Of a DNA stretch of 64,000 nt, positions 27,901-30,900 are shown in pieces (the first letter of the stretch is position 1; the number at the start of each line of letters is the position of its first letter). The DNA lies in assembly GCF_988243305.1 (NCBI RefSeq), contig NZ_OZ547136.1; one strand, written 5' to 3'. Made by a program: the position numbers.

Positions 27901-30900
27901 GTCATCCGCTGTTTTTTCACTGTCATTCCGCCAGCAGTTTTTCACAGCCCGGGTAAGGCGCATCACGTCGGTGATCTCCACACTGGCCAGATAGTTACGG
28001 ATGATGTGTTTTGCCATTGATACCGCCAGATGATTTTTCCCGGTACCGCAACTGCCGGTCATAACAAGACTGGTACCGTTCTCCAGCATATCTGGCCAGT
28101 TCTCCGCATAGCGGCGACAGGCCGCAAGATTTCTGGCTGCGTCAGGATTAACCTCCAGATAATTATCAAACTCGCAGTCCCGAAAACGCAGAGCAATTCC
28201 GGCGTTATCAGTCAGTTCTTCCGCCTTGAGGGACGACAGTTCCATGGTCAAATCACTGGCCTCAGCGATCAAGCAGTCAGGGCAGCATGAAATTTTTTCT
28301 CTGTCCTCGCCATTACGATCGATCCACACCAGTATATGCGTACGATATTTACCGTGTTTTTCGCAATATCCGCGACCTTCACGCATCAGGCAGGAACGAT
28401 AAGGCCATGGCTTTTCGCCCTTCTGAGCAAATGCAATCTCTGCCCGTAACTCATCCATTTCTGCCCGTAACTCATCCATTCGCGCCTGTAGTCTTGTTTG
28501 TTTCTCACGTTGGTCAATCGTCATCATCGCTGTCACCTCAGAATGTCAATTTGTTACTGGATTTACCGAATTTGTCAGACATGGCTCCCAGGCCAGCCAG
28601 GACATCGACCTGTCGCTGTCGCCCACCTCCGTGAGCGGCTGGCTGTTGCCAGTAATCTTCGAAGTGACGATCGGGTCCAAAGAACGTCGCAGCCTGCTTC
28701 ACGAACTGTGTGCCGGTATTTCCTGTAGCACGTACCCAGGCGGCATACCGCTTCACGCCATCAAGCATGGTCTCCGGTTTTATTCCCTCCCTGATACGGG
28801 CTTTCCAGGCTTTGAAGGCCGCTGACTTGGAATTGCCACCAGCACGTTTGGGATATTCCTGCCAGGCCTGTTCAAATTCCGGTGAATATTCCTGTCGGGC
28901 AGAACGCGCAGACGCGTCAGCGGATGCATCAATAGTGTTTTTAGTCTCCGTTGTAATCTCTGTAGTAATCTCTGTATTTGTATCAACATTCGGCGTATCC
29001 CCTGTTCCGTTATGACGTCGGGGGGTGTTCCGTTTTAACGTAATAGCTGTATCGCTGATTGCATTATTGCTGTTACTTTCTGGCGAAACAGAAGAAGGTG
29101 TGGTGATGGCCGCAATTGCCTGTGGGTTGATCCCGACAAACAAAATATTGCTGCATTTCACCCCATCGAGCATTTCCACCGTGCGTAAATCCAGAGTAAT
29201 AAACCCTGCATCGCGCAGACGCTTCAGCGCATCTGCGGTTTCCCTTTTCCCGAAACCAAACTGCTCAGCAAACGCCTGGTAGCTTCTTTGCAGTTTGTCG
29301 CCCTGAAAACGCTTGCGATATCCCAGCAACGCTCCGGTGTGCTCATCCCTGACCTCTGTCGGGCGGTACCAGTAAACGATCTCTGAAAGCAGAGCGATAG
29401 CCGTCGCATCCGGACGCCCACTGGGTAGTCGAATATATTTCCACCAGTTCGCAGGTGTAACATTGCCGGAAATATTAATTTGACCAATAGCCATAACTTC
29501 CGGTGTGGGGGCGTAACGGCTCATACAACCTCCTTCCGCGGCATGAGAATTGTGTAGCCACGCGCAGGTTGTAGTCGGGCTTTTGCATCAATAGTAAGCG
29601 TTGCAATTTTTCGGATATGAAGATAACCAGCTCTTTCCAGTGCCAGGGTTTCCCTGAATATCGCTTGCTTAGAACAACAGCAGAAATCAGCAAGCACCTG
29701 ATGATCAATAACTCTCTCGCCTTCACCGTCTGAAGAACCCGACATCAAAACACGCAACATAATTAGGCGCTGAATCGGGTTATCGAAAGCACATCCGCAC
29801 ACAAACTGAAAACAGTTCACGCCACACCTCCCAGACGCTTAAACATTTTTCCAGACAGAAATACCGCCAGAGGGTAACTGATGGTGTAGCTACGCCCCTG
29901 TAGTTCGCACACGACTTTCTGGCTTTCAGCGTTGACTAGGCAAACCCGCAGAACGTGACCGTTGCTGGTGGCGAACCACTGCCCCACACGGGGGCAACGG
30001 TTGTATCGGTGATACAGGGAATTAACGATGTGGCGGATCATGGACGCACCTCCACCGTAGTTACGTATTTAACCGGGCTACCTTTCATTGAGATGGTTTC
30101 ACACATCTCTGCCGCTTTCAGTTCCGCTGTTTTTCTGGATTTATAGCGACGGTGCCAGACAGATACATCCGTGCGAACTGATACATCGTTTCTGTATTCC
30201 GTAGTGGAGATGATGATTTCGTAACTAATCATGGGCGAACCTCCTTGTCAGAACCATTCAGCCTGGAATCAACAAGTGCAGCGCCAAAAACAGCATCACC
30301 AACACGGTCGTACAGTTTGCTAGCCAGCGGAGATTCAACGGCCTTAAGCATTGGATAAAGCTGGCTTGTCCAGATTTGATGGATTTCACGCAAATGCAGG
30401 TATACGCCTCTGGCGTTTCGTGCGACAGCTGACATATCAGACGCATCGGCACCTGATAAACTCTTCTCCATCAGGTTAAAGGCGTTGATGTATGCCTCTT
30501 TGAACCGGGCTGCACGTTTGCCAGTAAAGCCCATAGCAAGGAACGCGAAGCCATCACGGGTGATTTGATAGCAAGGTAGTTTGCGGCCTGTGCAATCGGT
30601 GTAATCACTCACCGAAAAATTGCGGGCAGTGAATGATGCGGAGCATTCAAGCGTGCGGATCTTTTTCAGTACATCGTCATGACGCTTGGAGAAGAAGTTG
30701 GCAACAGCCAGGGATGAAGTAACAGCCTGACCATCAACGATGGCAATTTCAGGTTGAGTGAGGGTTGGGATCGTAGCCATGATGGCAGCCTCCGTTGACT
30801 GTGGAAAACTTCCACCACCGGAGCTGCGAAACTCACTGGTGGCAGACTGAACAGGGTTCGCAGTACCGGCGTCAACGGAGACCGGCGAGCCTTTCGGCTC

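Follow-up and report, generated by a model that had tools for sequence, protein, structure and literature searches.

A conserved 12-bp repeat array in a probable replication origin within the initiator gene of an Escherichia coli prophage

A lambdoid prophage in the 64,000-nucleotide (nt) stretch of Escherichia coli DNA analyzed here (NCBI RefSeq assembly GCF_988243305.1, contig NZ_OZ547136.1; the whole stretch is called the window) carries a tandem 12-bp repeat in the middle of its replication initiator gene, and the question is whether this repeat belongs to a replication origin or is only a piece of repetitive coding sequence. Origins located within initiator genes have long been known, with lambda and pSK41 as examples. 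The new finding is a short DNA word that is retained almost letter for letter in coding sequence, in E. coli prophages, Lachnospiraceae elements, Bacillus plasmids and Acinetobacter alike, whichever iterons precede it and whichever helicase-recruiting domain comes after. Comparison of related loci established this architecture, its conservation, a constraint at the DNA level and the independence of the 12-mer from the iteron family. The array probably lies within an in-gene replication origin, and we hold with slightly better than even confidence that this origin has two parts, both in the linker-coding middle of the gene, and that the 12-mers form its conserved, non-specific arm.

The initiator gene (28538-29524, minus strand) was recognized by translation of its open reading frame (ORF) and a match to phrog_270, and encodes 328 amino acids (aa). 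From alignment A1 together with a structure model, the protein is predicted to comprise an N-terminal winged-helix domain (N-domain, about aa 1-135), a linker holding the candidate origin (about aa 136-200) and a C-terminal DnaD-like/primosomal-type domain (C-domain, about aa 200-328). The 12-mers and adjoining 23-bp repeats occupy codons ~160-195 of 328, which in terms of position only is between the parts coding for the two domains. Exact search found two perfect 12-mers, GTAATCTCTGTA, at 28953-28964 and 28965-28976 (minus strand; TACAGAGATTAC twice in gene sense), with the codon register ACA GAG ATT ACT, or TEIT. A third, degenerate unit on the same strand, TTAGTCTCCGTT (28941-28952; gene sense AACGGAGACTAA), matches at 8/12 positions by direct reading and is followed by AAAAAC; a degenerate terminal unit followed by an A-run was also seen in the related loci L094, L096 and L098. 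Tandem Repeats Finder reported a period-12 array at 28945-28976 (2.7 copies, 90% matches), and the translation across it, NTEITTEITTETKNT, contains the linker peptide TEITTEITTE. A preliminary description of this DNA had noted two perfect tandem copies plus a degenerate upstream copy encoding this peptide within the initiator gene, and all of these were recovered. The lead-in to the array (GATACAAA in gene sense; 28977-28984, minus strand), with its ACAAA anchor, is kept in relatives. Perfect two-copy tandem repeats with a unit of 10-30 nt occurred twice in the window and in none of 20 shuffles, the second being a 21-bp repeat in the neighboring DnaC-like gene.

The same word, ACAGAGAnTAC in gene sense, was found after many different 22-23-bp arrays in at least 120 viral loci, by a scan that required two adjacent units, and in 22 bacterial genomes. 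The hosts included Enterobacteria, Acinetobacter, Pseudomonas, Bacillus and Lachnospiraceae, and some of the loci were on plasmids. The viral loci represented at least 99 distinct contexts with 2-5 copies (mode 3), among them the phages mEp460, Pseudomonas phage AF and Bacillus phage TP21-L, and ACAGATATAAAY-like variants were present in Flavobacterium, Vibrio and Bacteroides phages. At 60% identity, the N-domains upstream of the array in these contexts separated into at least 22 clusters, and at 25% identity or more all 95 testable N-terminal regions joined into one superfamily of YW-type winged helices; the C-domains downstream formed at least 17 groups without BLASTP links. An exact scan for ACAAATACAGAGAATACNACAGAG, with one genome per species, gave 22 loci, in Lachnospiraceae, Clostridiales, Mogibacterium, Coprococcus and two Acinetobacter; with 23 fixed bases and ~6e11 positions, we calculated that ~0.01 would be expected. 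Nineteen of the 20 loci with enough upstream sequence had an N-domain of the initiator's family just upstream, and each of those 19 carried a different 22-23-bp array that ended in GGG(G) right before the 12-mers. ACAAATACAGAG was common to the window, L097, L100, L104 and the 22 genome loci.

Loci were also picked by N-domain similarity alone (down to ~47% identity), and all ten had a related array directly after their own iterons. The arrays in this set included ACAAATACAGAGAATACTACAGAG in a ParA/ParB-linked Firmicute-like element, and two copies of CAGAGAATTCTT after five of GGTATGGACAnnnnTGTCCAG. These comparisons show that, at the level of sequence, the 12-mer is independent of which iteron family precedes it. 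Plasmids with the same architecture, in an apparent replication module, were the 16-kb Vagococcus plasmid pBN31-16k (L255) and Bacillus thuringiensis p05 (L259). The former has iterons, ACAGATATTAC-type 12-mers, a C-domain like that in the window and a DnaC-like gene; the iterons of the latter, TACGTTAGAACGTA, are a near match to the E. coli core. In three Firmicute-like elements (L100:1990-2260, L102:3380-3720 and L104:1600-1960), the N-domain and a DUF6017 C-domain are encoded by ORFs in different frames that overlap across the iterons and 12-mers. This offset could result from frameshifting, from a gene split in two or from faulty assembly; the iteron number of these elements also differs (2 versus 6). 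No description of the 12-mer array was found in the open-access literature, where sequence and DUF6017 queries gave chance primer matches only, and the Eru papers on the replication regions of non-lambdoid Shiga toxin (Stx) phages do not discuss origins.

Conservation of this kind might lie in the protein or in the DNA. At the ten loci chosen by N-domain similarity alone, third codon bases at identical residues agreed in 72% of comparisons (123/170) in the 42-nt 12-mer region versus 38% (551/1458) in the N-domain, the pairs not being independent. In 126 flanking units lying outside the searched pattern, among the viral matches listed, positions 1-5, 7, 9 and 10 were conserved at 86% or more; Thr was encoded by ACA in 93% and Glu by GAG in 91%, whereas the middle base of the third codon was free, with ATT, AAT, ACT and AGT (Ile, Asn, Thr or Ser) all present. 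Fixed wobble bases together with a free middle base in one codon are the opposite of the outcome expected from selection on the protein, and this pattern indicates that the constraint acts on the DNA and not on the protein. Furthermore, phage TP21-L (L248:1733-1765) has 12-mer-like units at 11- and 10-nt spacing, the middle one of which is in another frame (IPETTQRIPETTT). In the allele L009, divergence from the window was 1.7% in the linker/origin, compared with 9.7% and 12.7% in the N- and C-domains, respectively. The results show that the repetitive linkers of these initiators are shaped by the DNA that they overlap.

The preliminary description had named a variable coding repeat, and nothing more, as the outcome that would speak against an origin. 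In this explanation, the array is a slippage-prone repeat giving a flexible, Thr/Glu-rich linker of variable length, with no function for its DNA sequence. The unit is indeed in frame and polymorphic in copy number. In the 89 loci from E. coli and IMG/VR whose N-domain is near-identical, 1, 2, 3, 4 and 5 perfect copies were present in 1, 74, 12, 1 and 1 loci, respectively. The array is also located in a variable low-complexity linker, and its frame reads T-E-x-T in 81/81 testable viral loci among the matches listed. Such a repeat should have drifting synonymous sites as well, but the synonymous sites of the array were more conserved than those of the folded N-domain. ACA and GAG were fixed even in E. 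coli while the third residue could be I, N, T or S, a 23-base stretch was identical between Lachnospiraceae and Acinetobacter, and TP21-L placed one unit out of frame. Thus, although the array can contain anywhere from 1 to 5 perfect copies, the conservation of its synonymous sites speaks against a mere coding repeat, and we consider this explanation distinctly unlikely. Given the T-E-x-T count, the notion that all three frames are used across the array proved mostly wrong. The exceptions are three Firmicute-like loci in which the N-domain ORF translates the array differently; at these loci, the usual frame is restored by the DUF6017 ORF downstream. The uniform frame could be due to common descent with in-register recombination, or to poor tolerance of other frames. 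Separately, the E. coli alleles L010, L011 and L012 have 3-5 copies of the 12-mer with the N-domain and origin of the window, a different C-terminal tail, and neither DnaC-like nor DnaB-like genes downstream.

The sequence preceding the array in gene sense contains a second type of repeat. Two 23-bp units on the minus strand were identified as iteron candidates: candidate 1 at 29026-29048 (plus-strand core TGTTCCGTTTTAACGT at 29026-29041, gene sense ACGTTAAAACGGAACA), which was invariant in the aligned E. coli alleles, and candidate 2 at 29003-29025 (plus-strand core TGTTCCGTTATGACGT at 29003-29018), 23 bp from the first. TGTTCCGTTWTRACGT occurs twice within 29003-29041 at a distance of 23 bp; with up to 3 mismatches, matches of this type numbered 5 in the window versus 1.16 expected from shuffles, and the window held no other close matches. 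Candidate 1 contains the dyad CGTT-AA-AACG (unit form CGTT-NN-AACG), and the two units are in differing codon phases. One further 23-bp step leads to a degenerate third iteron-like unit (28981-29002, minus strand; gene sense GGGGATACGCCGAATGTTGATA), which bears a weak resemblance (12/20 bases) to the last, also degenerate, unit of the Symbiopectobacterium locus L098. The three 23-nt steps in the window amount to 69 nt.

Units homologous to candidate 1 were present in about four copies each in L098 and the metagenome locus L094. More generally, two to four units of the form CCCCT-n-ACGTT-nnn-ACGKAAC were present in relatives of the N-domain that had come from protein searches alone (identity 64-72%; metagenome, Symbiopectobacterium and Arsenophonus). 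By direct reading, the L098 units use all three reading frames, and this repeat is therefore a DNA repeat and not a protein repeat. Relatives in general carried 2-6 units at 22-23 bp, each N-domain lineage having its own unit, and the sequence upstream of the 12-mers showed its strongest self-similarity at a period of 21-23 nt in nearly all related loci. The 23-bp units are iteron-like because they repeat as DNA and not as protein, have a period of two helical turns and show partial dyad symmetry, as in lambda (PMC7466680). At L099:1099-1235 and L100:2009-2144, the iteron spacing alternates between 22 and 23 nt; the double unit is 45 nt, and the reading frame is therefore kept.

The 12-mers had been described as iteron-like and, on the model of lambda, as the best origin candidate in the window. 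If they were iterons themselves, that is, double-stranded sites bound by the DNA-binding domain of the initiator, this would fit the tandem direct repeats in an initiator gene at the position used in lambda (PMC7466680). They co-occur with one broad superfamily of YW-helix winged-helix N-domains (all 95 testable regions) and are absent from two HTH_36-type initiators, and a conserved N-domain face reading a conserved site is possible in principle. However, a repeat bound in this way should co-vary with the DNA-binding domain, and the 23-bp units did so, whereas the 12-mers did not. The 12-mer stayed constant across N-domains down to ~25% identity with wholly different 22-23-bp repeats, and accompanied the Stx1-phage N-domain, which gave no BLASTP alignment with that of the window. 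Its units lack dyad symmetry, repeat with a 12-bp period and vary from 1 to 5 copies among near-identical alleles, whereas the partly palindromic 22-23-bp units resemble classical dimer sites and follow the N-domain lineage. The 12-mers are thus unlikely to be the iterons, and the adjoining 23-bp units, which co-vary with N-domain lineage in the sequences compared, are the better candidates. The place chosen in the preliminary description, in contrast, appears right: it is the linker-coding middle of the gene, beside the iteron candidates, with the least stable duplex and a constraint on the DNA.

Duplex stability was examined by a nearest-neighbor free-energy scan. The least stable 60-bp segment, a candidate unwinding region, was 28931-28991, which was the least stable both in the initiator gene and in 28000-30000 and ranked in the top ~1% of the 64-kb window. 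An adjacent A+T-rich unwinding region had been proposed as something to look for; the array itself proved to be the least stable duplex and the local GC minimum (0.37), whereas no separate A+T-rich tract apart from the repeats was seen in the composition profile. In 50/53 loci with a local GC of at least 0.48, the array was the least stable 36-nt segment within ±400 nt. This low stability fits an unwinding role in the phages of Proteobacteria. Thermodynamics alone is insufficient to account for the conservation, because the array was unremarkable in A+T-rich hosts. No hairpin or cruciform was predicted on either strand of 28925-29055 (z-scores 0.5 and -0.05), no sigma-70 promoter was found in or near the array on either strand, and a search for known RNA families gave only a chance small nucleolar RNA match (E = 0.068), far below the gathering score. 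Reading the 12-mer as a DnaA box or DnaA-trio was rejected, since the match was poor by eye.

The breadth of hosts might suggest that the array serves a widespread host factor instead of the phage initiator, for instance as a primase start site, as a landing pad for a helicase or as a site for some other protein associated with origins. It accompanies many initiator and C-terminal types in Gram-negative and Gram-positive hosts, and its single strand is predicted to be unstructured. CTG and CTA are trinucleotides preferred by the primases of E. coli and Firmicutes; each unit presents CTG on the bottom strand, and CTA spans the top-strand unit junction. The exact pattern was, however, almost confined to these initiator genes (19/20 testable loci), and the array is not a sigma-70 promoter and does not resemble a DnaA box by direct reading. 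We regard a host-factor site as highly improbable.

Homology with other E. coli phages ended at or near the array. The Stx1-phage initiator (L002), whose N-domain belongs to the same broad superfamily as that of the window yet does not align with it in BLASTP, carries four 12-mers and a 23-bp repeat family particular to it (GGTTTCCCnnnTCCGCGG); at the DNA level it is homologous to the window across the C-domain and the array, and no further. In Stx phages, the shared block on the C-terminal side reaches query base 438 (window 28975), the last base but one of the array, and in phiP27 and PhiR49_2 the homology ends at query 397-399, just short of it. Because homology with L002, PhiR49_2 and phiP27 stops at or just before the array, the array is judged from these alignments to mark a mosaic joint. 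It could therefore be asked whether a conserved recombination joint between origin-binding and helicase-recruiting modules, at which in-register exchange yields viable chimeric initiators, is all that there is. This would account for the invariant frame and for an array common to otherwise unrelated N and C modules. It leaves unexplained why a single sequence, free at one position, has been retained across phyla, and why the array always abuts the last iteron in one orientation. As the whole explanation it is improbable, although a joint is compatible with the two-part origin.

For the two-part origin, the following mode of action can be envisaged. Dimers of the N-terminal winged helix would bind two or three partly palindromic iterons spaced by 23 bp (28981-29048). 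By analogy with known origins, the strands would open at the adjoining array (ACAGAGAnTAC x3, 28941-28984), in the least stable duplex of the gene, and/or one strand of the array would be held sequence-specifically, as plasmid initiators hold their 13-mers. Gene order and domain annotation suggest that the C-terminal domain would then recruit the phage DnaC-like loader and DnaB-like helicase.

Several observations weigh against this proposal. The case for an origin element is wholly comparative. In A+T-rich hosts the array was not unusually unstable (median rank 0.126, n=31), and the 12-mers are only 67% A+T. The element is not universal, given that PhiR49_2 and phiP27, with an HTH_36-type N-domain and the same C-domain, have other short repeats in place of 12-mers. 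The uniform T-E-x-T frame at all 81 loci leaves room for a role at the protein level, and the low divergence of the L009 linker could come from recombination and not from constraint. Finally, the window has two clear iterons only, and its 23-nt periodicity signal is weak (0.34).

A wider proposal, which we put forward tentatively and at somewhat less than an even chance, is that ACAGAGAnTAC arrays are an undescribed second origin element occurring across phyla in a very large winged-helix initiator superfamily of phages, plasmids and integrative elements. They would act as sequence-specific sites of strand opening or of single-strand landing, recognized either by a conserved initiator face or by a conserved host factor, and would always lie directly 3' of lineage-specific iterons in the initiator coding sequence. 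If this second-element proposal is true, the position of the origin and the direction in which it opens are indicated by the array in thousands of mobile elements that are otherwise unannotated. If the array is functional, it would reduce the location of origins in a large, uncurated superfamily of initiators to a one-line rule and provide a clean system for studying how winged-helix initiators without ATPase activity open DNA, and it would account for a common mosaic breakpoint in the replication modules of lambdoid and Shiga-toxin phages.

The prophage adjoins yecE/yecN, and its initiator gene was 100% identical to the copy in strain S4 and 99.9% identical to the copy in an ST131 strain. The early-right region, on the minus strand, comprises in order a cro-like gene, two Rha-family genes, small ORFs, a 99-aa ORF, the initiator gene, the DnaC/IstB-like helicase loader gene (27628-28536) and the DnaB-like replicative helicase gene (26231-27631), the last two identified by profile matches. 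The 99-aa ORF (29521-29820, minus strand) overlaps the initiator start by 4 nt and matches phrog_4617 'replication initiation protein'; one genome annotation calls it a transcriptional regulator, and Symbiopectobacterium L098 has a 99-aa ORF at the equivalent position. The second perfect tandem repeat of the window, a 21-bp duplication at 28439-28480, is at the 5' end of the loader gene and encodes MDELRAE twice. Three minus-strand tRNA genes lie at 22193-22438 in the late region: Arg(tct), Arg(tcg) and a tRNA with a cat anticodon, which is Met according to ARAGORN, whereas the third tRNA of the near-identical strain S4 prophage is annotated as Ile. The spacing between the tRNA genes and the replication genes differs by ~1.5 kb between the window and strain S4.

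Against PHROG, the initiator ORF matched phrog_270 'replication initiation protein' with E = 3e-75. It had no Pfam match at E <= 0.01, so that Phage_rep_O was unmatched, and no NCBIfam match. The YW-type N-domain is covered by no curated Pfam or NCBIfam model, its family gave at most weak HTH_36 and GntR matches, and Foldseek against PDB returned generic winged helices only. Because a phrog_270 match was obtained without a Pfam or NCBIfam match, the gene called O-like in the preliminary description is, on these profile searches, O-like by role but not a member of the lambda O family.

These properties can be compared with those of known origins. In lambda, the origin consists of iterons and an AT-rich tract in the middle of gene O; two iterons and the tract suffice for unwinding, and O binds A/T-rich single strands (PMC7466680). 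The candidate origin of the window is similarly placed in the middle of an initiator gene, between a putative DNA-binding N-domain and a putative loader-binding C-domain, and partial-dyad iteron candidates, about two helical turns apart and variable in number among relatives, are followed in gene sense by an easily melted tract on the C-terminal side. It differs from lambda in that Phage_rep_O does not match the initiator, DnaC-like and DnaB-like genes take the place of P as its partners, and the low-stability tract is a sequence-conserved 12-mer array and not merely A+T-rich DNA. In pSK41, the Rep boxes are located centrally within rep and encode a dispensable linker (PMC5703833); the repeats of the window likewise lie in the linker-coding middle of the initiator gene, whereas the N-terminus of the window initiator does not qualify as a RepA_N domain (PF06970). 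The DnaD-like phage proteins that PHROG annotates as 'replisome organizer' or 'replication initiation O-like' are another point of comparison, the YW-type N-domain being outside curated models. As for plasmids RK2 and F, their initiators TrfA and RepE hold one strand of the unwinding-element 13-mers sequence-specifically at the same time as they occupy the iterons, and the exact sequence of the 13-mers is needed since a winged-helix initiator holds that strand (PMC4081077, PMC10602881). The RK2 and F elements are intergenic and served by Rep_3-type initiators, whereas the repeats of the window are coding, 67% A+T and common to many initiator specificities. In both cases, short tandem repeats of ~12-13 nt lie beside iterons and are conserved in sequence, not in composition alone, and the RK2 and F 13-mers are the best analogy for a possible mode of action of the 12-mers.

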